Under the pieces are notes generated by a model that did no database searches, was not told the DNA's origin, and saw nothing but the letters and a program-made list of their open reading frames with translations. A stretch of 41,182 nucleotides of DNA from Candidatus Nomurabacteria bacterium (GTDB taxonomy: Bacteria; Patescibacteriota; Minisyncoccia; Phycocordibacterales; UBA9973). The number at the start of each line of letters is the position of its first letter. Position 1 is the first letter of the stretch. The translations under genes and the position numbers were made by a program. Shown one piece after another: positions 3,526 through 38,030 of the stretch. The stretch is taken from positions 1 through 41,182 of the forward strand of contig JAHFNV010000003.1 of assembly GCA_023267115.1 (NCBI GenBank), written 5' to 3'.

Positions 3526-3614
3526 TGTTGTTATTTGTAGCATATGCGTAGTTTCACAACAACAAAGATATTGTGTTTAACTAAAAAGGGGCGCTTGAAA
3601 ATTAAAAACTAAAA

Positions 3615-4901
3615 CTAATACTCCCGCATGGAAATCTGGGCATCGATTTTTTTGATCAGATCCAACACTACGGAAACGACGATCAGGAGAGCGGTGCCGC
3701 CGAGGGCGATATCGGTAATATCGGTAGCCGCCCGCATAATTAAAGGCAAAACAGCAATAAACCCAAGGAAGATTGCTCCCAGCATGGTTATGCGACTGAG
3801 AACTTTTGAAATATAGTCAGAGGTTGATGCCCCCGGACGAATGCCGGGAATAAAAGCGCCATTTTTTTGTAAATTAGTGGCAAGCGCTTCCGGATCAAAA
3901 GTGACTGCGGTGTAGAAATAAGTAAAAAGGAAAACTAAGATAAAATAAAGCGTGGCGTAAAGCCAAGAGGTTGGCGAAAATGAAACTAGGATTTGAGATA
4001 TTTTAACTAAAATGGGATGAGCGAATCTGGACAAAAAAACACCGATCATTTGCGGAAAAAATAAAATGGAAAGGGCAAAAATTATCGGGATAACTCCGGC
4101 TTGATTTACCCGCAGGGGCAAATAAGTTGATCCGCCACCATACATTTTCATCCCCCGCACCCGTTTGGCATAAGTAACTGGTATTGGACGCTCGGCTTCA
4201 GTCACCACCACCACCCCGGCAATAATCAGTACACCAGCGACTACAAATCCTAACAGAAGCGGCAACACGCTTGGGTCAAATGTCGGATAAATATATTTAA
4301 AAATAAGCTGACTAATTTCGGCTGGTAATCTGGAAACAATACCGGCGAAAATCAAAAGGGAGACGCCATTTCCAATACCGAATTCAGACATCAATTCGCC
4401 GATCCACATCAACAGCATCGCCCCGGCAATAACAATAATTAAATTGATGATCCTGTCAAAAGCCGTCAAATTTACCAAAATATTCTGACGCTCCAAAATA
4501 GCCAAAAGACTGAAGCCTTGAATCGCCGCCAATGGAATAGTCAGCAATCTAGAATATTGGGTAAACTTTTTTCGGCCAGCCTCACCTTCTTCATGATAAA
4601 TTTTCTTTAGAGCCGGAATCATGATGGTTAAAAGCTGCATAATGATCGAAGAGGTGATATACGGCCCAACACCCAGCATGATGATGGAAAGATTGGAAAG
4701 TCCACCACCAGAAAATATATTCAGGAAGCCAAAAAACTGGTTGTTGACTAGAAAACGATTCAGTTCTTGAGTATCAATGCCCGGAATAGGAATAGCTGCC
4801 AGCAATCTGAAAACCATCAGGGCCACAAGTACGAATAAAACCTTGCGTCGCAAGTTTTTATCTGTCCAGATTAATTTTATTTTACTCCAAAAGTTTTGCA
4901 T
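3615..4901 (-). CDS. secY: Preprotein translocase subunit SecY
   Basis: 428 aa, about 10 TM spans, GIDTQ.. / GGG..SIIMLGVGPYITSSII, in operon context. Confidence 0.95.
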   Translation of the reverse strand: MQNFWSKIKLIWTDKNLRRKVLFVLVALMVFRLLAAIPIPGIDTQELNRFLVNNQFFGFLNIFSGGGLSNLSIIMLGVGPYITSSIIMQLLTIMIPALKKIYHEEGEAGRKKFTQYSRLLTIPLAAIQGFSLLAILERQNILVNLTAFDRIINLIIVIAGAMLLMWIGELMSEFGIGNGVSLLIFAGIVSRLPAEISQLIFKYIYPTFDPSVLPLLLGFVVAGVLIIAGVVVVTEAERPIPVTYAKRVRGMKMYGGGSTYLPLRVNQAGVIPIIFALSILFFPQMIGVFLSRFAHPILVKISQILVSFSPTSWLYATLYFILVFLFTYFYTAVTFDPEALATNLQKNGAFIPGIRPGASTSDYISKVLSRITMLGAIFLGFIAVLPLIMRAATDITDIALGGTALLIVVSVVLDLIKKIDAQISMREY

Positions 4902-5821: not shown

Positions 5822-6163
5822 TTAAAGTTTGAGCCCTTCAGCCCGGGCAATATCGGCCACTAATTTTATGCGCCCGGTGTATTTAAATCCATTTCGATCA
5901 AAAACAACTTTGACAATTTTTAATTTCTGGCAAATATTGGCGATCATTTGGCCAACTTGCTTGGCTCTTTCGCTTTTAGTGCCTTTTTTTATCTTAACAT
6001 CATTCGCTTGAGCCAAAGTTTTTCCGGTCAAGTCATCAATAACTTGCGCGTAAATAAATTTATTGGAACGGAAAACGGAAAGCCTGGGACGGGCTGAGGT
6101 ACCTAGAATCTTTGCTCTAATTTTTTTCTTCAATCTTATTCTTTTGTCTTCTTTATTTTTCAT
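5822..6163 (-). CDS. rplR: 50S ribosomal protein L18
   Basis: RPRLSVFRSNKFIYAQVIDD...VVFDRNGFKYTGRIKLVADIARAEGL. Confidence 0.93.
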   Translation of the reverse strand: MKNKEDKRIRLKKKIRAKILGTSARPRLSVFRSNKFIYAQVIDDLTGKTLAQANDVKIKKGTKSERAKQVGQMIANICQKLKIVKVVFDRNGFKYTGRIKLVADIARAEGLKL

Positions 6164-7158: not shown

Positions 7159-7344
7159 TTACCAGCTTGATTTTCTCACCCCTGGCAATTTTCCTTCATT
7201 AGCTAATTCTCTAAAACAAATACGGCAGACGCCAAAATCGCGCATAAAAGCATTGCCTCGTCCGCAACGAAAGCAGCGGTTTTTCCGCCGAGTACTAAAT
7301 TTCGCTTTCTTTTTGCTTCGGGCGATAACTGATGTTTTAGCCAT
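7159..7344 (-). CDS. rpsN: 30S ribosomal protein S14, zinc-binding type Z
   Basis: 61 aa with CFRCGR...CRICFRE (CxxC...CxxC) and C-terminal KSSW. Confidence 0.92.
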
Positions 7345-8339: not shown

Positions 8340-8367
8340 AATTATAAATTATAAAGTAATGATGAAT

Positions 8368-15899: not shown

Positions 15900-15991
15900 A
15901 TTTTTTATTTATTAAATCTTATAATGCCAAACCGCTTTTGCGGTTGCCAAAAAATCGGCAACATAAAAACCGCAAAAGTGCAGTTGTCAAC

Positions 15992-16019
15992 ATACTAACA
16001 AATTAAAAAGTATTGTCAA
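15992..16019 (-). promoter_or_regulatory. Candidate tuf promoter
   Basis: On the minus strand: TTGACA (16019-16014), 16 nt, TAGTAT (15997-15992). An 11-bp inverted repeat cttttgcggtt/aaccgcaaaag lies in the UTR. Confidence 0.4.
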
Positions 16020-16034
16020 ATTAGAAGATGGCCA

Positions 16035-16601
16035 TTAGCTAGAAAAAATAATTTCTATTTTCTTATCCTTGAATTCAGATAAATGCTCTAGGAGTTTTAT
16101 CGCCAAATGATTAGGCAAGTTGTCGTAATTTTCAATATCAGGAGTAATGTTTACTTTTAGTTTGCTAAGTTCATCTTTGGTTTTAAAATCAAGAACTGTA
16201 AGCGTCCCCGATCTTTTTCTCTCTACAATGGAACGTAAAACTTTTTTCTCTTTATCAGTTACCTGCATAGCATCAACCATTTTATAGTATAAATCTGGCG
16301 CTGATTCAAGATTCTTTTGTGTAGTAATTAGGACGGTGATCTTATTAACCGCCAAACCCTTTTCCATATAATCAAGCATCTTTTTCGCCAGTAGAAATAC
16401 TTCTTTACGAGTATGCCAAATCTGCGCCCCTTTTTTCTCATCTTCTGGGAAGGTACCTATTGCTATCCTGTAAGCCGTAAAAAGTTCGTCGCTTGAAAAG
16501 TTGTGATACTCGCAAAACGAAATAAGGTCGTTTATCTGTTCTTTTTCTAAACTGCTACTCCCTCCCGCCGGCGGTTCAAATTGATTTTTCATTAAGGACA
16601 A
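16035..16601 (-). CDS. Hypothetical protein (188 aa) inserted between fusA and tuf
   Basis: Long clean ORF with no motif I can recognise. Confidence 0.5.
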   Translation of the reverse strand: MSLMKNQFEPPAGGSSSLEKEQINDLISFCEYHNFSSDELFTAYRIAIGTFPEDEKKGAQIWHTRKEVFLLAKKMLDYMEKGLAVNKITVLITTQKNLESAPDLYYKMVDAMQVTDKEKKVLRSIVERKRSGTLTVLDFKTKDELSKLKVNITPDIENYDNLPNHLAIKLLEHLSEFKDKKIEIIFSS

Positions 16602-16614
16602 TATAGCTCTTTAG

Positions 16615-16899
16615 TTAAGTTTTAGCAATTCGAACTTCCTCACATAGCTTTTTTATTTCCATCTCTGGATTTTTGGATTGGGTAATCTGCCTACCGATAA
16701 CTAAGTAATCTGCCCCATTTCTAACAGCCTCAAGTGGAGTGCTAATTCTAGTTTGATCATTAACACCGACCCCGAGAGAGCGAATTCCTCCAATATCAAG
16801 GGTTACCCTTGATATTTTACCATCAGCAAAGACCCCAAAGGGCCCTTCCTTAAAGTTCTCTTCGTAAGTTTTTTCTGGATCATAGGATGGGGTAAGCAT
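16615..16899 (-). pseudogene. C-terminal remnant of an orotidine-5'-phosphate decarboxylase (PyrF-family) gene
   Basis: GGIRSLGVGVNDQTRISTPLEAVRNGADYLVIGRQITQSKNP matches the PyrF C-terminal GIR..DQ.R..TP..A...GAD.LV.GR.IT...P pattern. The ORF is only 94 aa and is preceded by about 300 bp of non-coding DNA. Confidence 0.6.
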
Positions 16900-17205
16900 T
16901 CTAAATATATTAACAAGAAAAGCAAAAAAATGAAAATAAATTTTTAGAAAACTCGCAAGGACAGTCCTTTAGAGTTAACGTTTTACGAAAAATCTTAACA
17001 AAAAGAAGATTAACCCGAAAACTAAAAGATCAATAGAAAATAAAGAAAGAAATCAATTCAATGGGGGCTCCTGCGTCAGAACAGTGAACTCGCCAATCAC
17101 ACTCACTTAAGAAAGGCAGGTATGGAATATATGTAAAAAATACTAAGAAAAATAATAGACCTAATGCAAGAATTTTTACAACCCTCATGAGTCAATTATA
17201 CCATA

Positions 17206-19368
17206 CTATTTTCTCGTTGCCATTATAGTCTCTGCAATATTTTGTGGAACTATATCGTAACGTACGAATTCCATTGTAAAAGAAGCGCGGCCTTCGGTCA
17301 TAGAGCGCAGGCCGGTCATGTAGCCGAACATTTCAGAGAGTGGCACAATAGCGCGGACAACTTTACTCATCCCCCGGTCTTCCATACCTTCAATAATACC
17401 CCGCTTGGCAGAAAGATTGCCGGTCACATCGCCCATAAATTTATCCGGGGTAACCACTTCCACTTTCATCATCGGCTCTAGGATTACCGGATTTGCTCGA
17501 CGGCACGCATCTTGCACCGCCATTGAAGCGGCAATTTTGAAAGCCATTTCATTTGAGTCAACCTCGTGGTAACTTCCATCCCAAAGATCTACTGAAACAT
17601 TTACTATTTTGAAACCAGCCAAAATACCACGGTCCAGTCCTTCTCTAAATCCTTTTTCACAAGGGATAATATATTCCTGCGGGATAACTCCTCCTTTAAT
17701 ATTGTTTACAAATTCAAAACCTGAGGACCGTTTGGTATTTTTCGGCAAGTCTTCCAGCTCTTCTTTGGTTAGCGCCACCATCGGTTTAACTTTAATCTTC
17801 ACATGTCCGTAGTTTCCTCGTCCACCAGACTGCTTGATATACTTTCCTTCAGCTTCGGAGACGCCAGTAATCGTCTCACGATAAGCTACCTGTGGCTTAC
17901 CAACATTTGCTTCTACGGTAAATTCTCTCTTCATTCGATCTACAATAATTTCCAAATGGAGTTCTCCCATACCAGCGATAATGGTCTCGCCTGTTTCTTG
18001 ATCGGTAGTCACCCGAAAAGTAGGATCTTCTTGGGAAAGACGATTGAGGGCCATACCCATTTTTTCCTGGTCGGCCTTGGTCTTCGGTTCAATACGCAAA
18101 CTAATAACCGGCTCCGGGAAAACAATGCGATCTAATTCTATAGGATTATTTTCGTCGCAAATGGTGTCCGAGGTAATCGTATCTTTCAAACCCACCGCCG
18201 CGGCTATTTCTCCGGCAAAAACTTTTTTCACCTCTTCGCGGTCGTTGGCGTGCATTCGCAAAATTCGCCCGATCCGTTCTTTGTTGCGAGTGCGTGGATT
18301 ATAAACATAACTGCCAGCCGAAAGACTCCCAGAATAAACCCGGAAGAAAATAAGCTGGCCGACAAAAGGATCGCTAGCTACCTTGAAGGCTAACGCCGAA
18401 AAAGGCTCTGAGTCAGAAGCGCGACGGACCATTGGCTCTTCATTGTCAGGATTGATTCCTGGAATAGGCGGGATATCGGTTGGAGCCGGCAAATAATCAA
18501 TCACCGCATCCAGCACCAGTTGCACTCCTTTATTCTTTAAAGCCGAACCAGCGAATACCGGAAAAATATTATTAGCAATGACCGCTTTGCGCAACACTTT
18601 TTTTAAGGTCTCGAAAGTGGGAACCAGGCCATCCAAGTATTCAGTCATCAAAGCATCATCCGTCTCCACTATCTTTTCAATCAGCTCGTTGTGATAGCCT
18701 AAGGCTTCAGCTTGAAGATTTTCGGGAATTTCTTTTTCTACGATTAAATTACCCATCTCTCCTTCAAAGTAATAAGCCTTCATCCGTAGCAAATCAATCA
18801 CCCCCTCAAATTTTTCTTCCAGACCGATGGGAATTTGCATGCGTACTGCATTTTTATTTAATCTGTCTAAAATAGTTACGTAAGAGTGTTCAAAAGAAGC
18901 GCCGGTGCGGTCCAATTTGTTTATAAAACAAATGCGTGGCACCTTGGCTTCGTCGGCGTAACGCCAGTTGGTTTCAGACTGCGGCTCCACTCCGGCCACT
19001 CCATCAAAAACAACCACCGCGCCGTCCAGCACTCGCAACGAACGTTTTACTTCTACCGTAAAATCAATATGTCCGGGAGTATCAATAATGTTGAAACGAT
19101 GTTTAAATTCATTGGTCGGCCTGCCCTCCGTAGCCTTGGCGTAGGAGGGGGTCCAAAAACAAGTAACCGCCGCCGAAGTAATAGTAATGCCACGCTCCCG
19201 CTCCTGTTCCATCCAGTCTGTGACTGTGTCCCCTTCGTGCACCTCGCCGATTTTATGCGACACGCCAGTATAAAAAAGCACCCGCTCGGTGGTGGTCGTC
19301 TTGCCGGCATCAATGTGCGCGATAATGCCAAAATTGCGAACTTTTTCTAAAGGGTAATCGCGTTCCAT
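17206..19368 (-). CDS. fusA: Elongation factor G
   Basis: [29 protein letters not shown], 720 aa. Confidence 0.98.
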
Positions 19369-19425
19369 AAAAAAAGCGCCGAATGCGCTATGGATAATAT
19401 ATCTTATAAAGCCTTTTTTTGCAAA

Positions 19426-19647
19426 TTACAAATTATTAAATTCTTCAACAGAAAGTTGAGCCTGTTTTACCACAATGTTATAAAGGGTACCAACTGGAAT
19501 ATCTTTTGAGCCATGAACTTGCACAGTTACAATTTTGTTTTCGTATGCGAGATATAAATGACTGCCTCTTTGGTGTGTTTCGACAAAACCTGCCTTTTTT
19601 AATTTCTGAATAACTTTTCTAGCTGGTAGTCGACTCAATTTACCCAT
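19426..19647 (-). CDS. hicA: HicA-family toxin
   Basis: KVIQKLKKAGFVETHQRGSHLYLAYE..VTVQVHGSKDIPVGTLYNIVKQA. Confidence 0.75.
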   Translation of the reverse strand: MGKLSRLPARKVIQKLKKAGFVETHQRGSHLYLAYENKIVTVQVHGSKDIPVGTLYNIVVKQAQLSVEEFNNL

Positions 19648-19650
19648 AAC

Positions 19651-19899
19651 TTAAGCATACTTAGGAAACAATAATTTAATGTAAGTGCCATCAGTGTGAA
19701 ATGCTGATTTTGGAATTTCTTTTTGTTGTTTATGTAAAACTTCAAAATAACCCAAGGCGGCTTCCCGTATATTAGATTCAGCCTCGGCAAAAGTATCGCC
19801 AAAAGAAGATAAATGATTTAGTTCGGGAATAGTAGCGATTACTTGCCCAGAATCCTTATCATTCTCATATTCGATTTTGTATGAAAATTCGTTGCTCAT
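19651..19899 (-). CDS. hicB: HicB-like antitoxin
   Basis: 82 aa: ..YENDKDSGQVIATIPELNHLSSFGDTFAEAESNIREAALGYFE. It lies immediately upstream of hicA. Confidence 0.6.
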   Translation of the reverse strand: MSNEFSYKIEYENDKDSGQVIATIPELNHLSSFGDTFAEAESNIREAALGYFEVLHKQQKEIPKSAFHTDGTYIKLLFPKYA

Positions 19900-19905
19900 A
19901 TTCTT

Positions 19906-19937
19906 AACTATACACTAAAAATCTTTTGATTGCAATA
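19906..19937 (-). promoter_or_regulatory. Conserved TA-cassette promoter block, copy A (leaderless geometry)
   Basis: On the minus strand: TTGCAA-17-TATAGT, then 7 nt, then the hicB ATG. 30 of 32 positions are identical to 20632-20663. Confidence 0.55.
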
Positions 19938-19979
19938 TCCTTATATATATATATGTTAAAAAAAGTAAAGGAGAAGCAC

Positions 19980-20084
19980 ATGAAAAAATTAAAGAACATT
20001 GCCTCAGTGGCAATGTTCGTGTTACTGAGTTTTTGGCTTTTCGGTTGTTTCCCCCACCTGGGGAAATACAAACCGAACCCATAA
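19980..20084 (+). CDS. Small putative lipoprotein/peptide (34 aa)
   Basis: AAAGGAG lies 7 nt upstream of the ATG. Translation: MKKLKNIASVAMFVLLSFWLFGCFPHLGKYKPNP, a signal peptide with lipobox L-F-G-C. It is followed by a 10-bp hairpin at 20096-20123. Not in the ORF track because it is too short. Confidence 0.45.
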   Translation: MKKLKNIASVAMFVLLSFWLFGCFPHLGKYKPNP

Positions 20085-20095
20085 AAGGCCTGGGG

Positions 20096-20123
20096 CTAAC
20101 AAAGGTTGCCGGGCCTTTGTTAG
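20096..20123. terminator. Symmetric hairpin, possible bidirectional terminator
   Basis: ctaacaaagg - ttgccggg - cctttgttag. Confidence 0.4.
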
Positions 20124-20131
20124 TTATGGAG

Positions 20132-20165
20132 CTACCAAGCAAAGTGCGCGAAGGCTTTGTTGGCT
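20132..20165. repeat. 34-bp perfect direct repeat, distal copy (duplicate of the rpsG 3' end including its stop)
   Basis: ctaccaagcaaagtgcgcgaaggctttgttggct is identical to 21320-21353. Confidence 0.95.
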
Positions 20166-20175
20166 GTGGGAAAAT

Positions 20176-20427
20176 TTATTTATAAATATCTTTTCTGTGT
20201 TTAATCTTTAGAACGAAAATTTGATTTTCAATCACGTCGAATTTTATTCTGTAATCCCCTATTCTAAATCTAAAATCAGCATCCTTGTGGTCTGTTAATT
20301 TTTCAGCAAAGCGAAGCGGATTTTCCACTTCGGCATAAAATCGCATTTTTTGAGCTACTCGCCTTTGGGTATCTCTGGGCAGGGATTGCAAATCAATTAT
20401 CGCGCTTTTGGTGTAATTGATCTGCAT
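20176..20427 (-). CDS. RelE/ParE-family toxin
   Basis: ...DFRFRIGDYRIKFDVIENQIFVLKIKHRKDIYK is the typical RelE/ParE C-terminus. Confidence 0.75.
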   Translation of the reverse strand: MQINYTKSAIIDLQSLPRDTQRRVAQKMRFYAEVENPLRFAEKLTDHKDADFRFRIGDYRIKFDVIENQIFVLKIKHRKDIYK

Positions 20428-20433
20428 AAACTT

Positions 20434-20625
20434 CTATAATCCGAGTTTCTTAAAAAGAAGGCTTTGCGATAGATATTTCTTTTGTTTTATTTCTTTTCGA
20501 GCTTGTTCTATTTCTTTCAGGTGCAAGAAGGAACCAAAAAGACGCTCAAAAGACTGCTCAATCTTTTTGAGATAACTGTACTCCTCCGCTGGAATTGCTA
20601 TTGTATTTTTCGTTTGAGTGGACAT
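20434..20625 (-). CDS. Putative cognate antitoxin (63 aa, family unclear)
   Basis: Small helical ORF 6 nt upstream of the RelE/ParE gene. Confidence 0.5.
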   Translation of the reverse strand: MSTQTKNTIAIPAEEYSYLKKIEQSFERLFGSFLHLKEIEQARKEIKQKKYLSQSLLFKKLGL

Positions 20626-20631
20626 AGAGTC

Positions 20632-20663
20632 AACTATATACTAAAAAGCTTTTGATTGCAATA
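20632..20663 (-). promoter_or_regulatory. Conserved TA-cassette promoter block, copy B
   Basis: On the minus strand: TTGCAA-17-TATAGT, then 7 nt, then the antitoxin ATG. Confidence 0.55.
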
Positions 20664-20678
20664 AGATATTGATGACAG

Positions 20679-21146
20679 TTATCCTATTATTTTATTTAAA
20701 TCTGTCTCCCATTTGAAATCTTTTGCCTCCTTAATCCGTGTTTCTATCGCCCTACTTATGTCTTCATCTTCATATTCTTGATCCATTGCCTTAGGATGCC
20801 ACTTGTCATAAAGTTTCCTTGCTTGTTCGCTTGTAATCTTTTTACCATCCACGCTACCGTAAAGTTTTACACTGGGATCAATATTATCACCAACATCAAC
20901 GAACTGTTGGGTACTAATACCCATCCAGATTTTAATTTCATGTCCATATAAACGTCCCGCCAAAACTTCACCCGAAAAACTAGCGGGCCCACCTCTTAAA
21001 TAATAAAGGTGGTCTCCTTCTACATTTGTTCCAAGATTATTTATATGTTCTTCTCTTTTTGTAGATAATGCTGATTGATGGGAATCCATCATCGCCTCAG
21101 CTTCTTTTTCTTGTTTGGATGTTATTTTGAATTCTTCCATTGGCAT
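20679..21146 (-). CDS. Hypothetical protein (155 aa)
   Basis: Clean ORF preceded on the minus strand by TTGACA-16-TACACT. No motif recognised. Confidence 0.5.
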   Translation of the reverse strand: MPMEEFKITSKQEKEAEAMMDSHQSALSTKREEHINNLGTNVEGDHLYYLRGGPASFSGEVLAGRLYGHEIKIWMGISTQQFVDVGDNIDPSVKLYGSVDGKKITSEQARKLYDKWHPKAMDQEYEDEDISRAIETRIKEAKDFKWETDLNKIIG

Positions 21147-21319
21147 AAAATTTTATTGAATTTAAATAATATGGGATAATACCCATAAGTGTACCCCCCC
21201 CGATGCGATATGTCAAGCAAAAAATTCCCCTCTTGAGGGGTGGCTTTTGTAATCAAAAGACGGGGTGGATAAATTCTGTCCACCTCCCCCACTTCGTGGG
21301 TACTCCTCAAGAGGAGAAT

Positions 21320-21353
21320 CTACCAAGCAAAGTGCGCGAAGGCTTTGTTGGCT
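21320..21353. repeat. 34-bp perfect direct repeat, proximal copy (the functional 3' end of rpsG)
   Basis: Identical to 20132-20165. It encodes ..ANKAFAHFAW*. Confidence 0.95.
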
Positions 21354-21790
21354 TCGGCCATTTTGTGAGTGTCTTCTTTCTTTTTAATGGCCGAGCCTTC
21401 GTTTCGTGAAGCGGCGATTATTTCGTCAGCTAGTTTAATATGCATCGGCTTGCCTTTGCCGCCCCGAGCGGCATCGCGAATCCAGCGCATGGCCAAAGCC
21501 AATCTTCGTTCTGGACGCACTTCTTTGGGCACTTGATAGTTCGCGCCACCGATTCTCTTGGAACGAACTTCTGTTAACGGCCCAGCGTTTTTAACAGCCA
21601 AATTAAAAACCTCTAACGGATTTGGGTTGCCAGTTTTTTCTTTGACTAAGTTAAGCATTTGATAAACCACTTTTCTTCCGGTTTCTTTTTTGCCGGACCA
21701 CATTACATAATTAATAAACTTTTCCAATTTTTGGGAATTATAAACGAAATCCGGTTTAACTATATTTTTATTTTTAATTTTGCGTCTCAT
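21320..21790 (-). CDS. rpsG: 30S ribosomal protein S7
   Basis: KRIGGANYQVPKEVRPERR.ALAMRWI. Confidence 0.96.
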   Translation of the reverse strand: MRRKIKNKNIVKPDFVYNSQKLEKFINYVMWSGKKETGRKVVYQMLNLVKEKTGNPNPLEVFNLAVKNAGPLTEVRSKRIGGANYQVPKEVRPERRLALAMRWIRDAARGGKGKPMHIKLADEIIAASRNEGSAIKKKEDTHKMAEANKAFAHFAW

Positions 21791-21801
21791 TTTTATTCTA
21801 A

Positions 21802-22224
21802 TTATTTTTTAGCTTCTTTGGGTCTCTTATTTCCATAAAGAGATCTACCCTGGCGCCTTTTCTCTACTCCTTGAGTATCCAAAACTCCGCGGACAATATG
21901 ATATCTTACTCCAATTAAATCTTTTACCCGTCCTCCGCGAAGCATTACTACCGAATGTTCCTGCAAGTTATGACCTTCACCGGGAATATAAGCTGTCACT
22001 TCCATGCCATTAGTTAAACGAACTCTGGCAATCTTGCGGAGAGCCGAGTTTGGCTTTTTAGGAGTAATGGTAGTAACCTTAATACAAACGCCTCTCTTAA
22101 AAGGTGCCGGGGAAAAAATCGGGCGGTTTTTCAAAACATTGAAACCGCGCGCCAGCGCAACCGTTTTTGATTTTCGGCGCATTTTAACTCTATTTTTTTT
22201 AATTAATTGGTTAATGGTTGGCAT
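21802..22224 (-). CDS. rpsL: 30S ribosomal protein S12
   Basis: [10 protein letters not shown]...[35 protein letters not shown]. Confidence 0.97.
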
Positions 22225-22276
22225 GATAAACAAAATAGCCCCTCTGGACTATAAAATTACTATACTATTAAAAATA

Positions 22277-22915
22277 TCAAAACACAAGGCCGGTAATAAG
22301 ATGATAAGCAAAAGCTAATATTGGATGTAAGAAATCAGCGAAGAAAATGATAAAAATAATTAAGAGAAAAAGTGAATATTGCTCAAATAGCCTAACCACT
22401 CCGTCAAAATATCTTGGCAAAAGCGGAAAAATTATTTTAGAACCATCCAGTGGCGGGATGGGCACAAGATTAAATATGACCAAGGCTAAATTTACCATCA
22501 CGATTAAAGAAATTATAAAATAAAATGAGACAGACATCCTAAGACCGAAAGAGAAATATGTGAAAAAACGTAGAATGAATCCAAAAAATAAAGCCAAGCA
22601 AAAATTTGCTAGAACACCCGCTCCGGCCACAGCTATACTCCCCCATTTTTTATTGCTTAAGTTATTTGGATTGTATGGTACTGGCTTGGCCCAGCCAAAA
22701 AGGAAACCGGCTTTAGAGATGATCAGAAATGCAGGCAAAATTATTGAACCAAAAAGATCCAAGTGAGAAAGGGGGTTAAGAGTCAAACGTCCAGCGTAGC
22801 GGGCGGTTTTGTCGCCAAAATATTCGGCTACAAAGCCGTGCGACACTTCGTGAATCACCACCGACATTACTAGTATAACTATATAAAAAATTGCATCCAT
22901 AAGTTGTAAAGTCAT
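22277..22915 (-). CDS. Site-2 protease family (peptidase M50) membrane metalloprotease
   Basis: HEVSHG (HExxH) in a TM helix and NLVPIPPLDGSKI. Confidence 0.8.
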   Translation of the reverse strand: MTLQLMDAIFYIVILVMSVVIHEVSHGFVAEYFGDKTARYAGRLTLNPLSHLDLFGSIILPAFLIISKAGFLFGWAKPVPYNPNNLSNKKWGSIAVAGAGVLANFCLALFFGFILRFFTYFSFGLRMSVSFYFIISLIVMVNLALVIFNLVPIPPLDGSKIIFPLLPRYFDGVVRLFEQYSLFLLIIFIIFFADFLHPILAFAYHLITGLVF

Positions 22916-23791: not shown

Positions 23792-23832
23792 GGCACAAAA
23801 GTCAGAGCTGTTCCCTTTTTGCCGGAGCGGCC
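23792..23832. repeat. 41-bp perfect direct repeat, distal copy (duplicate of the DEAD-box helicase 3' end)
   Basis: ggcacaaaagtcagagctgttccctttttgccggagcggcc is identical to 25245-25285. In frame it reads RTGRSGKKGTALTFVPA* with its own stop. Confidence 0.95.
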
Positions 23833-23869
23833 AGTACGACTATTTTTTTTAATGTTCTTAATACGCACG

Positions 23870-25237: not shown

Positions 25238-26482
25238 CTACCCAGGCACAAAAGTCAGAGCTGTTCCCTTTTTGCCGGAGCGGCCGGTTCGGCCGATCCG
25301 ATGCACATAGGTGTTGTAAGTTTGGGGAATATCGTAGTTGATAACGTGGGTAACATCTGGAATATCCAGTCCCCGAGCGGCCACGTCAGTGGCGATTAAT
25401 ATATTTATTTTATCTTTTTTAAATAAATCCAAGGTACGAATACGTTCGCGGCTTCTCTTGTCGCCATGAATAGCCCCGACTTTAAATCCTAATTGGGAAA
25501 GTTCACGAGCCAGAGTATCCACCGCGTGCTTCATCTCCCGGAAAATTAAAACTTTATCCGAACCGTCTTTTTTCAAAACTTCCTCCAGCTTTTGCAATTT
25601 TTCTTCTTTGTTTTTGGTGCGAACTACATCTTGGTCTATATTTTTAGCTGTCTCACCAGAAACTACCGAAATAAAAACGGGGGCTTTCAAAAATTGACCG
25701 GTTAACTTTTTTATTTCCGGAGAAAGGGTGGCTGAAAAGCAAAGAGTTTGCCGTTCCTTGGGAGTTTTATCAAGAATAAAAACCATATCATCCCTAAAAC
25801 CCATATCCAGCATTCTATCGGCTTCATCCAGCACAACACTATAGCAGGTTGATAAATCCAAAATTTTTCTATCTAAAAGATCGCGCAGTCTGCCCGGAGT
25901 GCCAATCACAAATGACACTCCCCTTTGTAGCTCACGAATCTGGCGCATGATTGGCAGTCCTCCCACGCAAGCCACCGAAAACATCCCGAACCCAAAAGCA
26001 AGATTTCTAAAATCAGATTCTATCTGGAGCGCCAACTCGCGAGTAGGCGCCATGATCAACACTGTTTCCTTCTTATTTTTGCCTTTGGTTTTTGCAATTT
26101 TCTCTATCAATGGCAAAAGAAAAGCTGCCGTTTTGCCAGTGCCAGTGTTGGCCATCCCGAAAACATCTAGGCCTTTTAGAACTGAAGGTATAGCTTGATC
26201 TTGAATCGGCCGAGGATGAATGAAACCAGCTTTGGCTATATTTTTATGCAGTTGTGCATCAAAAGGAAAATCCGCGAAGGTATGTTTGGATAGGTATGGT
26301 TTTTCTTCTAGGTGCATACCCTTTTTAACGAAACGGGAAAAATCTATCCGCTCGCCACGGGATCTGACACTACTTTTCCTATGGCCGCCAAAACGAGAAC
26401 GAGAATTATTAAATTGTTTTGCACGGCGTGCAAATTTAGGATTTCCAAATTTCTTTGGACTCCCAGAGTAACGTGTGTACAT
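25238..26482 (-). CDS. DEAD-box ATP-dependent RNA helicase with a basic N-terminal tail
   Basis: Q motif, AxTGTGKT, VLDEADRMLDMGF, SAT, HRIGRTGRSG. Confidence 0.93.
   Translation of the reverse strand: MYTRYSGSPKKFGNPKFARRAKQFNNSRSRFGGHRKSSVRSRGERIDFSRFVKKGMHLEEKPYLSKHTFADFPFDAQLHKNIAKAGFIHPRPIQDQAIPSVLKGLDVFGMANTGTGKTAAFLLPLIEKIAKTKGKNKKETVLIMAPTRELALQIESDFRNLAFGFGMFSVACVGGLPIMRQIRELQRGVSFVIGTPGRLRDLLDRKILDLSTCYSVVLDEADRMLDMGFRDDMVFILDKTPKERQTLCFSATLSPEIKKLTGQFLKAPVFISVVSGETAKNIDQDVVRTKNKEEKLQKLEEVLKKDGSDKVLIFREMKHAVDTLARELSQLGFKVGAIHGDKRSRERIRTLDLFKKDKINILIATDVAARGLDIPDVTHVINYDIPQTYNTYVHRIGRTGRSGKKGTALTFVPG
25245..25285. repeat. 41-bp perfect direct repeat, proximal copy (in the helicase 3' end)
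   Basis: Identical to 23792-23832. Confidence 0.95.
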
Positions 26483-31293: not shown

Positions 31294-31322
31294 GCGATAC
31301 TAATCTACGAATTCATGCGAAT
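31294..31322. repeat. 29-bp block identical to 32315-32343, immediately 5' of the rplK ATG
   Basis: gcgatactaatctacgaattcatgcgaat. It contains TACGAAT and TGCGAAT heptamers, and a third TACGAAT lies at 31325-31331. Confidence 0.9.
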
Positions 31323-31337
31323 TATACGAATAGAAAC

Positions 31338-31715
31338 TTAGGAATCAAGACGGACTACACGTACTGGCTTTAAATATCTATTTCTAAAATTAACAATCAG
31401 ACCTAATTTATAATTACTGGCTTGTAAATATTTCTGCATTTGATAATAATCTTCCTTCAAAATTAAAGGCTTGGCTTTTAGATCTACAAGAATCTTATTA
31501 TCTATTGTAAAATCTACCTTATTTGTATAACGATTGTCAATCATTTCCATCGGCAACTCCTTTTCTCTCTCAAAATTGACATTTTTTTCTTTGAATAGCT
31601 TTTCAAGAGCATCTCCGTACTGCTTCTCTCTACAATATCTCCCCAAGTTATTATGAACTTTAAACAATAAACCACTTATTATATAAGACAACTCTTTATA
31701 GATTATTTCCGTCAT
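31338..31715 (-). CDS. GxxExxY-family protein (PD-(D/E)XK-like fold)
   Basis: LGRYCREKQYGDAL..., VDFTIDNKILVDLKAK...YYQMQKYLQASNYKLGLIVNF. Confidence 0.65.
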   Translation of the reverse strand: MTEIIYKELSYIISGLLFKVHNNLGRYCREKQYGDALEKLFKEKNVNFEREKELPMEMIDNRYTNKVDFTIDNKILVDLKAKPLILKEDYYQMQKYLQASNYKLGLIVNFRNRYLKPVRVVRLDS

Positions 31716-32314: not shown

Positions 32315-32418
32315 GCGATACTAATCTACGAATTCATGCGAATCTGCGAATTAAATTTATTCGTGTGCCCTATTCGTAAGGGTTCTTAAACTATTCGTAT
32401 CATTCGTTCCATTCGTAT
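32315..32418. repeat. Gene-less copy of the heptamer-array inverted-repeat element (secE-nusG spacer)
   Basis: The same 29-bp block, then TACGAAT, TGCGAAT, TGCGAAT, followed by ATTCGTG, ATTCGTA, ATTCGTA, ATTCGTT, ATTCGTA. Confidence 0.85.
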
Positions 32419-37260: not shown

Positions 37261-38030
37261 TGTAGACGTCCAACATCTATTATAGACGTCCAACATCTAC
37301 ATTTTAATTTTCGTGAAAATCAATGGGAGCGAATTGCTTAATCGAACCATCTTTAGAAACTGACACCTTGCCTCTTTCTTCTCGAATAATTGAAATAATT
37401 TCAGTGCTGTGTTTTAAAAAATTTTTATATCCACCAAATATTTTCAAAAATTTCCTTCCCTCAACGGGGTTAACAAGATGAAAATTTCTGGTCTTATATT
37501 CCTGTTCACTTGTACGGATCAAATATTTTTTATTTTTAGGAATGTCATGCACGCGATAGTTCCACATGACATAAGAAAAAATCATTTCAAAATAATTTTC
37601 ACGTTCGACGTACGAAGATTTAAATCTTCCCTGCATTAGAGATCCACTACGTTTATGTCTATCATTAAAATATTTTGTGTAGCCACCTAGTAGGCGTTTC
37701 ATAAATTCGCTAATACCTCTATCTAATTCTTGTTTTAAAATTAAATGAAAATGATTAGGGTTCAAGCAATACTCCACTATAGATATCATTTTCTTTTTCT
37801 TATGTAGACGTTGAACGTCTACATTTTCACGAAGTGCAATCTGAACACTACCTACTGGATCTTTGTATGAGAATAATTTTAAGCAAAGTAGAAAGCGTTC
37901 GACATCTTTGTCATCAGAAAAAATATCACGTTTGTCTACCCCTCTGTTGTAAACATGATAATACGAACCATTAATAAAAGAATGTTTCCTCATCTTTATA
38001 TGATAACAAAATAGATGTCCAACGTCTACT
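37261..38030 (-). mobile_element. Minimal IS200-like / REP-associated (RAYT-like) element
   Basis: A single Y1-HUH transposase gene flanked by the 17-nt imperfect palindrome TAGAYGT-CCA-ACRTCTA: one copy at 38012-38028 and two tandem copies at 37263-37279 and 37283-37299. Confidence 0.65.
37304..37993 (-). CDS. IS200/IS605-family Y1 HUH transposase (RAYT-like)
   Basis: YYHVYNRGVDKRDIF, HUH motif NHFHLIL, GSLMQGRFKS, and a downstream Tyr-containing helix. Confidence 0.75.
   Translation of the reverse strand: MRKHSFINGSYYHVYNRGVDKRDIFSDDKDVERFLLCLKLFSYKDPVGSVQIALRENVDVQRLHKKKKMISIVEYCLNPNHFHLILKQELDRGISEFMKRLLGGYTKYFNDRHKRSGSLMQGRFKSSYVERENYFEMIFSYVMWNYRVHDIPKNKKYLIRTSEQEYKTRNFHLVNPVEGRKFLKIFGGYKNFLKHSTEIISIIREERGKVSVSKDGSIKQFAPIDFHEN

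Follow-up and report, generated by a model that had tools for sequence, protein, structure and literature searches.

The 3′ end of rpsG, the gene for ribosomal protein S7, is present twice in the str operon (rpsL-rpsG-fusA-tuf) of an uncultivated Candidatus Nomurabacteria bacterium: the last 34 nucleotides (nt) of the gene recur without a mismatch in the spacer before fusA, and the two copies bracket a stretch that encodes a ParE/RelE-family toxin, its 63-amino-acid (aa) antitoxin partner and a third small protein. The DNA analysed (the window) comprises 41,182 nt, positions 1-41,182 of contig JAHFNV010000003.1 in assembly GCA_023267115.1. With moderate confidence, we read the two 34-mers as the scar of an 'insertion with long target duplication', an arrangement known since 2000 only around restriction–modification genes and extended here to toxin–antitoxin cargo, to Patescibacteria and to the str operon. 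The pattern of tail duplication occurs twice in this one 41-kb window and again around homologous toxin–antitoxin genes in other Patescibacteria.

The duplicated rpsG tail

Read on the minus strand, the locus runs rpsL (21802-22233), rpsG (21320-21790), orf155, the antitoxin gene, the toxin gene, the second 34-mer, a hairpin, HicB, HicA and fusA, with a small plus-strand open reading frame (ORF) between the hairpin and HicB. The rpsG gene is intact (Pfam PF00177 Ribosomal_S7, 1.2e-55). The 34-mer, CTACCAAGCAAAGTGCGCGAAGGCTTTGTTGGCT, has exactly two copies in the window, both on the minus strand and spaced by 1188 nt, as the first-pass annotation of this DNA had described. The proximal copy (read from 21353 to 21320) consists of the last base of a Glu codon, the last 10 rpsG codons and the TAG stop codon; the distal copy (20132-20165) is non-coding and begins 10 nt past the stop codon of the ParE gene. 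No further match with three or fewer mismatches was found in the window, and the expectation from 100 shuffles is 0. The repeat is sharply bounded, with no similarity beyond the edge of either copy, and neither a longer degenerate duplication nor other fragments of rpsG, rpsL or fusA were found in the spacer. Across 23 related patescibacterial rpsG loci, none of which carries a duplicated tail, the C-terminal peptide ANKAFAHFAW is invariant and its nucleotides vary at synonymous sites. The identity of the two 34-mers despite this synonymous variation therefore indicates a recent copy and not convergence.

The duplication is real and not an assembly artefact. A MEGAHIT contig built at k = 141 in another assembly (L083, from ERZ27279563; L numbers label the loci and contigs compared) covers part of rpsG, both copies and all the DNA between them, matching the window at 99.86%. 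Independently, L084 extends from the end of the ParE gene through the 34-mer, the hairpin and HicBA into fusA at 100%, and the gene order of the window recurs on a 13-kb ENA contig. All three agree with the assembly, contrary to the artefact of which the annotation had warned. A length of 34 nt is close to common k-mer sizes, and a Logan contig built at k = 31 (L001) does break at the repeat, ending 30 nt into the distal copy, with its other end inside the multicopy palindromic element described below; both ends are expected branch points of the graph, because the true repeat is longer than k and the element is multicopy. Given that the k = 141 contig spans both copies and that a second contig spans the distal junction, a repeat that collapsed in the assembly graph and was resolved along the wrong path is an extremely improbable explanation.

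Both of these contigs have tails that diverge from the window, either strain variants or low-coverage chimeric ends, which we weigh as suggestive only. L083 (1438-1561) departs at window position 20105, inside the hairpin loop, keeping the hairpin arm and continuing into a different convergent ORF that encodes a 30-aa membrane protein; either the population is polymorphic at the level of cassettes, as this suggests, or the contig end is chimeric. L084 (1065-1209) departs at 19119, around fusA codon 83, into a Hint/intein-like frame (CVTGDTLLPV...) that is 1 nt out of frame, and may represent an intein-containing fusA variant in a co-occurring strain, or again a chimeric end.

The distal copy is followed by a hairpin (20096-20123) that is common to the rpsG side and to the convergent small ORF, a 34-aa lipoprotein-like frame (…LFGC…) on the plus strand (19980-20084). 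The annotation had regarded this hairpin as the terminator of an uninterrupted rpsG. Its 10-bp stem is real; it has no U-tract and is not called as an intrinsic terminator. A search of region 19000-22500 against Rfam returned no family at significance.

Tail duplications at other genes

A repeat search of the whole window revealed a second case. The 3′ end of a DEAD-box helicase gene (47 nt, 25245-25291) recurs at 23792-23838 with 45 of 47 positions identical, both differences being synonymous; between the copies lie one gene with a Lycopene_cyc domain and a second that is PaaX-like. The distal copy encodes ...FVPA* and ends in TAA, and the same VPA*/TAA end is found in L197, L002, L009 and L005, whereas the proximal copy has a novel ...VPG* end. 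None of nine relatives carries the helicase-tail duplication.

A scan of all fetched loci uncovered a third case, around relatives of the toxin–antitoxin pair itself. In L203 and L204, homologues with 80% amino-acid identity are bracketed by a 42-nt exact duplication of an aminotransferase tail (48 nt with one mismatch, including the stop codon), at 3596-3637 and 4251-4292 in L203 and at 526-567 and 1181-1222 in L204. The start of the distal copy falls in the ParE stop codon; the copy retains the original ...WYT* end and lies 3 nt before the ATG of the next gene. The duplication is also present in L201 (2402-2430 and 4263-4291), where its copies have diverged further and the bracket has gained HicB and two other genes. 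Two different genes, in different genomes, thus have the ParE pair at the distal edge of their bracket. The duplicated sequences of 34, 47 and 42 nt differ in length and share no core or motif. Because the distal helicase and aminotransferase copies keep the ancestral gene ends, they support the proposal of the first-pass annotation that the distal rpsG copy is the displaced ancestral end, which is probably right.

Other repeats and insertions in these loci are recorded here as separate observations. In the window, a 29-nt exact repeat (31294-31322 and 32315-32343) lies 4-6 nt upstream of the nusG and rplK start codons, a gene of the PD-(D/E)XK nuclease family (31338-31715) is inserted between these normally adjacent genes, and several ACGAAT/ATTCG boxes lie upstream of nusG. 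In L144, a 22-nt hairpin repeat (7317-7338 and 8340-8361) flanks a putative VapBC/PIN-like pair, judged from N-terminal sequence. In the spc ribosomal operon of L108, about 88 nt are repeated (1323-1410 and 5909-5996) around an insert that includes a putative MazEF-like pair, recognized by eye.

Bracketed DNA, palindromic element and spacer

The bracket holds three genes, as the annotation had listed them. The toxin (83 aa, 20176-20427, minus strand) matches PF05016 over its full length (29.5 bits against a cutoff of 23) and has 47 homologues, the closest with 84% identity and close relatives with 72-84%. The 63-aa antitoxin gene (20434-20625, minus) ends 6 nt before the toxin start and has no Pfam match; its pairing with the toxin is conserved, the 63+83-aa arrangement recurring in L201-L205 and L208, and in other loci the antitoxin is uncalled or has 77 aa. 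From this sequence evidence, the pair is predicted to be a type II toxin–antitoxin system of the ParE/RelE superfamily. In L201-L204 its homologues have another promoter and are flanked by the aminotransferase gene and by a neighbour of ClpB, and a third context, in L205-L214, places the family among AbiE and Fic genes.

The antitoxin/ParE operon is preceded by a promoter (copy b, 20623-20663, minus; TTGCAA-17-TATAGT, 7 nt before the ATG) that is a 41-nt near-copy of the HicB/HicA promoter (copy a, 19897-19937, minus), 726 bp away and identical at 35 of 41 positions (30 of 32 in the core). With promoters 7 nt before the ATG, the ParE-pair and HicBA operons are probably leaderless.

The remaining gene, orf155 (20679-21146, minus), encodes a fast-evolving small protein that matched no family in Pfam, NCBIfam or PADLOC. 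Its remote homologues are P0122 (41% identity), P0123 (34%) and the orf152 product of L093 (29%, E = 1e-10). A WD40 match from an exhaustive profile-free search was rejected as spurious; the same search gave two remote homologues. The orf155 promoter (TTGACA-17-TACACT, 21188-21216, minus), whose spacer contains a G8 tract, also precedes the homologues in L082 and L093 in conserved form. Across the family (window 21188-21221; L082 about 760-800; L093 about 890-935, minus) this promoter, with its spacer tract of G8-G10, is better conserved than the protein it precedes (29-41% identity).

None of the three bracketed proteins is an integrase, transposase or relaxase by Pfam, NCBIfam and PADLOC, which bears out the earlier description of the bracket. 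Among the 33 window proteins scanned there is no integrase, and the sole mobility-type match is a Y1_Tnp gene 16 kb away, which encodes an IS200-like, RAYT-like protein with a Y1 transposase domain (37304-37993; PF01797, 5.8e-9). A homologue of this Y1 protein adjoins the orf155 homologue in L082, and in L181 a related Y1 gene is flanked by 31-nt hairpin repeats.

Directly abutting the rpsG stop codon is a 96-nt palindromic element (21224-21319, minus). Its invariant inverted ends of 18 nt, ATTCYCCTCTTGAGGRGT, pair into a long stem that encloses three hairpins, with a folding energy of -49 kcal/mol (z = -6). In L007 (1787-1884), a homologue with compensatory changes separates rpsL from the gene for an M50 peptidase; a single metagenome scan yielded 112 stretches with the element. 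The family (L085-L196, about 87 distinct copies) comprises sequences of 83-115 nt with invariant inverted ends and a covarying four-way-junction fold, in which helices P2 and P4 covary and P1 and P3 are invariant. Nearly half of the copies with a nearby upstream ORF (16 of 36) lie within 3 nt of its stop codon. Of the 87 copies, 24 lie inside long ORFs of conserved proteins, and 23 of these share one frame and one length class, adding a peptide of the form NSPLEEY...TPQEGN (written NSPLEEY...STPSRKRATPQEGN). The element-bearing genes include RsmA, PurD, UvrB, LepA, IF-2-like and Tgt-like genes, whose products were recognized by conserved flanking motifs; LepA, the one compared with solved structures, has the peptide as an insertion relative to those of EF4. 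As a cause of the 34-mer duplication the element was rejected, none of the approximately 87 other copies showing a duplicated flank.

The element family stands apart from the duplication and may be the more surprising of the two findings. It is absent from Rfam, no description of it turned up in the searchable literature, and it is written into housekeeping proteins. By description, the family resembles the Rickettsia palindromic elements, which are said to have been described by Ogata and colleagues in 2000. Both are multicopy, about 100 nt long and stably folded, and both occur between genes and in frame within conserved genes, to which they add a peptide. The host phylum is unrelated, however, and the elements described here differ in their four-way-junction fold, invariant ends and strong preference for stop codons.

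The interval between rpsG and fusA measures 1951 bp in the window and includes a second toxin–antitoxin pair beyond the bracket, HicB (19651-19899, minus; PF15919, 1e-5, 26.2 bits, just below the 27-bit cutoff) and HicA (19426-19647, minus; PF07927, 1.6e-15). By its S7 homologues the window belongs to Patescibacteria (Paceibacteria/Nomurabacteria-like), the nearest S7 being only about 90% identical, and the relatives that serve as the single-tail and short-gap comparison have 85-90% S7 identity; among the close ones (L002, L004, L008, L009, L010, L023 and L198) the gap is 6-90 bp. The last 57 nt before fusA (19369-19425, minus), with the promoter TTGCAA-17-TATATT followed by a hairpin and a T-run, represent the ancestral leader: L093 has a homologous fusA leader, and the one in L002 is similar. 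Given the short gaps and the shared leader, the entire 1951-bp interval is accessory, and not only the bracketed 1.15 kb to which the first-pass annotation had confined its island.

The rpsG–fusA spacer is a hypervariable hotspot. In L007 it holds HicB-like and HicA-like ORFs, recognized by eye, together with a nucleotidyltransferase-like gene and a small ORF without assignment; in L003, a 145-aa gene without assignment; in L197, a long palindrome as well as a GIY-YIG gene and a gene for 111 aa; in L200, a palindrome of 125 nt; and in L015, other genes amounting to 3.5 kb. The palindromes of the closest relatives sit directly after the rpsG stop codon (L197, 3548-3700; L200, 5472-5596) and are unrelated to the 96-nt element. 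In L093, rpsG is followed by 50 nt, the palindromic element, an orf155-type promoter at the same 7-nt distance, orf152 and the fusA leader, with neither a toxin–antitoxin pair nor a tail duplication. The element/orf155 part is therefore older than the duplication, or has repeatedly been placed after rpsG. Because this part also occurs in L093, because relatives of the toxin–antitoxin pair lie elsewhere under another promoter and because the pair's own promoter is a local duplicate, the bracketed DNA is a mosaic and not a coherent mobile unit.

The spacer downstream of fusA (EF-G; 17206-19368, minus) is also filled. Between fusA and tuf (15900-17205) lie an ORF for a 52-aa membrane protein, a 94-aa fragment and a 188-aa gene without assignment; the fragment matches only the C-terminal end of OMP decarboxylase and is a stray gene tail.

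Origin of the duplication

In an insertion with long target duplication, DNA carrying the addiction module (the 63-aa antitoxin and the ParE/RelE toxin) would have been added just past the rpsG stop codon, and the last 34 nt of rpsG would have been copied in the process, so that rpsG remained intact and an extra, non-coding tail came to lie beyond the insert. The spare tail would still be joined to the old downstream flank, so that the junction before insertion would have read from the rpsG tail into CTCCATAA and the hairpin. There is a single novel joint, at which the ParE stop codon plus 10 nt meets rpsG position -34; the other junctions are natural. The event would have depended on neither the target sequence nor an integrase; most likely, a break would have been joined to incoming or sister DNA illegitimately or through short homology, and the organism is thought to be capable of DNA uptake. 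The palindromic element, orf155 with its promoter and the promoter shared with HicBA may reflect later remodelling of the bracket, or the DNA may have been mosaic on arrival. Once in place, the toxin–antitoxin pair probably stabilizes the insert against loss by recombination between the 34-mers.

Several observations weigh against this reading. Exact-protein look-ups with S7, orf155, ParE, the antitoxin and HicB led to three assemblies and one Logan contig, all with the arrangement of the window, and to neither a conspecific empty site nor a circular form; treating the bracketed DNA as an insert therefore rests on analogy and on the gap lengths in relatives with 85-90% S7 identity. There is no microhomology at the novel joint between the ParE end and the 34-mer. 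The L093 locus, with the element, the G-tract promoter and an orf155-family gene after an undoubled rpsG tail, fits vertical inheritance of the element/orf155 part better than its arrival inside the insert. No bracketing repeat surrounds the toxin–antitoxin relatives in L205-L214. Finally, the class itself was defined for restriction–modification genes, and its mechanism was never shown.

An unlikely but by no means far-fetched alternative is that two rpsG–fusA spacer alleles were stacked, through one illegitimate joint and a second crossover in the homologous fusA, by homology-facilitated illegitimate recombination or by unequal exchange after DNA uptake. One allele would have comprised rpsG, the element, orf155, the ParE pair and fusA; the other, with rpsG, the hairpin, the small ORF, HicBA and fusA, would have been placed behind it and kept the last 34 nt of its own rpsG. 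In support of this idea, a plausible native flank follows each 34-mer and only one joint is novel, and L093 exemplifies the first allele type without the duplication. Both halves are laid out as tail, variable module, the same promoter and a toxin–antitoxin pair, the repeat ends exactly at the stop codon, where the spacers of relatives start to differ, and the co-occurring contigs L083 and L084, from one sample, differ just past the distal hairpin, which points to alternative alleles in the population. However, neither parental allele was observed in this species, the promoter copies differ whereas the 34-mers are identical, and stacking alone leaves the recurrence at the helicase and aminotransferase tails unexplained. 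The alternation in register of the two direct-repeat pairs (34-mer, promoter, 34-mer, promoter) could also reflect a local tandem duplication of a block of rpsG tail, variable segment, promoter and toxin–antitoxin pair, followed by replacement of most of each copy. We consider this very improbable: it needs several independent replacements that spared the non-coding 34-mer, and the interiors share no other similarity.

The first-pass annotation had described the repeats as an attL/attR footprint, that is, a small, non-autonomous, cis-mobilizable-like integrative island that would be moved by a tyrosine or serine recombinase acting in trans at a 34-bp att core in the rpsG 3′ end and would supply a replacement gene end. 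Its geometry is the classical one, with one of the direct repeats forming the gene end; integrases are known to target the ends of ribosomal-protein genes in Firmicutes; and the presence of the orf155 module next to rpsG in two lineages could reflect targeting. We nevertheless regard such an island as improbable. The comparisons that the annotation had suggested gave it no support: the 23 related loci are single-tailed; a scan of JGI metagenomes for the 34-mer gave 0 matches; and the 33 window proteins scanned include no recombinase besides the distant Y1 gene. The parallel duplications are unrelated in sequence and variable in length, the content is mosaic with a toxin–antitoxin pair that normally sits elsewhere, and the identity stops exactly at the start of an independently mobile palindromic element. 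Mobilization by the Y1 protein, with the element and the distal hairpin as single-strand hairpin ends and the 34-mer as a passenger from an earlier site, is more remote still. A Y1_Tnp gene is present, the insert begins with a structured element that is multicopy across genomes and found at stop codons, and the related Y1 gene of L181 has hairpin repeats at its flanks. Yet IS200/IS605-type transposition makes no target duplication, contrary to the 34-bp repeat; no palindromic element flanks or lies near the window Y1 gene, unlike in REP/RAYT or IS200/IS605 systems; the other element copies lack flank duplications; and the helicase and aminotransferase cases lack the element. Of the two routes that the annotation had left open, mobilization in trans and short-homology crossover, the second, taken as an illegitimate or short-homology and integrase-free event, is closer to the evidence, and the site-specific reading is unsupported.

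Beyond this locus, we tentatively propose, as a somewhat unlikely generalization, that Patescibacteria have a recurrent integrase-independent route that adds small cassettes at the 3′ ends of essential genes, duplicating 29-48 bp of the tail, and that one ParE-family toxin–antitoxin pair spreads in this way as a minimal selfish element. The toxin–antitoxin case suggests a general means by which addiction modules and small cassettes enter compact genomes while leaving closely packed essential genes unbroken. In this clade the str operon, normally invariant, is a hotspot for cassettes, and here it is split into separately promoted units. Because the pattern recurs, its mechanism is approachable by comparative scans: tail-duplication scars can be searched for systematically in many candidate-phyla genomes, and, if the route exists, it would offer many natural examples from which to deduce how the joining occurs.

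The searchable literature holds nothing relevant on rpsG as an integration site or on a palindromic element in Patescibacteria, and the closest parallels come from other systems. Cis-mobilizable elements are integrase-less islands with attL/attR in the 3′ end of a gene, such as those of the streptococcal ICESt1/ICESt3 family at fda. They resemble the bracketed DNA in being small, in lacking an integrase of their own and in having direct repeats of which one completes the target gene; they differ in that their repeats form an att core conserved for a known integrase family and occur at the same gene in many strains, whereas no such recurrence is seen here. Homology-facilitated illegitimate recombination and transformation merodiploidy in competent bacteria (for example PMC3240628, PMC3784515) add foreign or sister DNA, as the favoured reading or allele stacking might, by combining one homologous anchor with one illegitimate joint, and can give duplications without a mobile-element enzyme; the events are laboratory ones in bacteria other than Patescibacteria. 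The usual result of such recombination is a deletion or a large tandem duplication, and not tail duplications of 30-50 bp.

The nearest match is the insertion with long target duplication, introduced by Nobusato et al. (2000) as cited by Furuta, Abe & Kobayashi (2010, Nucleic Acids Research; PMC2853133). As the latter text presents the class, its repeats exceed 30 bp, vary in length and are specific to the locus, mobility genes are absent, the repeat often overlaps the 3′ end of the upstream gene, as in the Haemophilus influenzae cases with 46-bp repeats, and the hosts are mostly competent species; the mechanism is given there as not established. The definition given there requires restriction and modification genes, so that the ParE/RelE pair and orf155 fall outside it, and relies on a genome with the empty site, in place of which the comparison here uses single-tailed relatives with 85-90% S7 identity; the patescibacterial host and the target inside the str ribosomal operon differ as well. 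On the features that this account lists, the likeness is close: the repeat, identical at 34 of 34 nt, is longer than 30 bp and lies at the 3′ end of the upstream gene, the insert is small and carries an addiction module, and the bracketed proteins include no mobility gene, with a small palindromic element at the proximal end.

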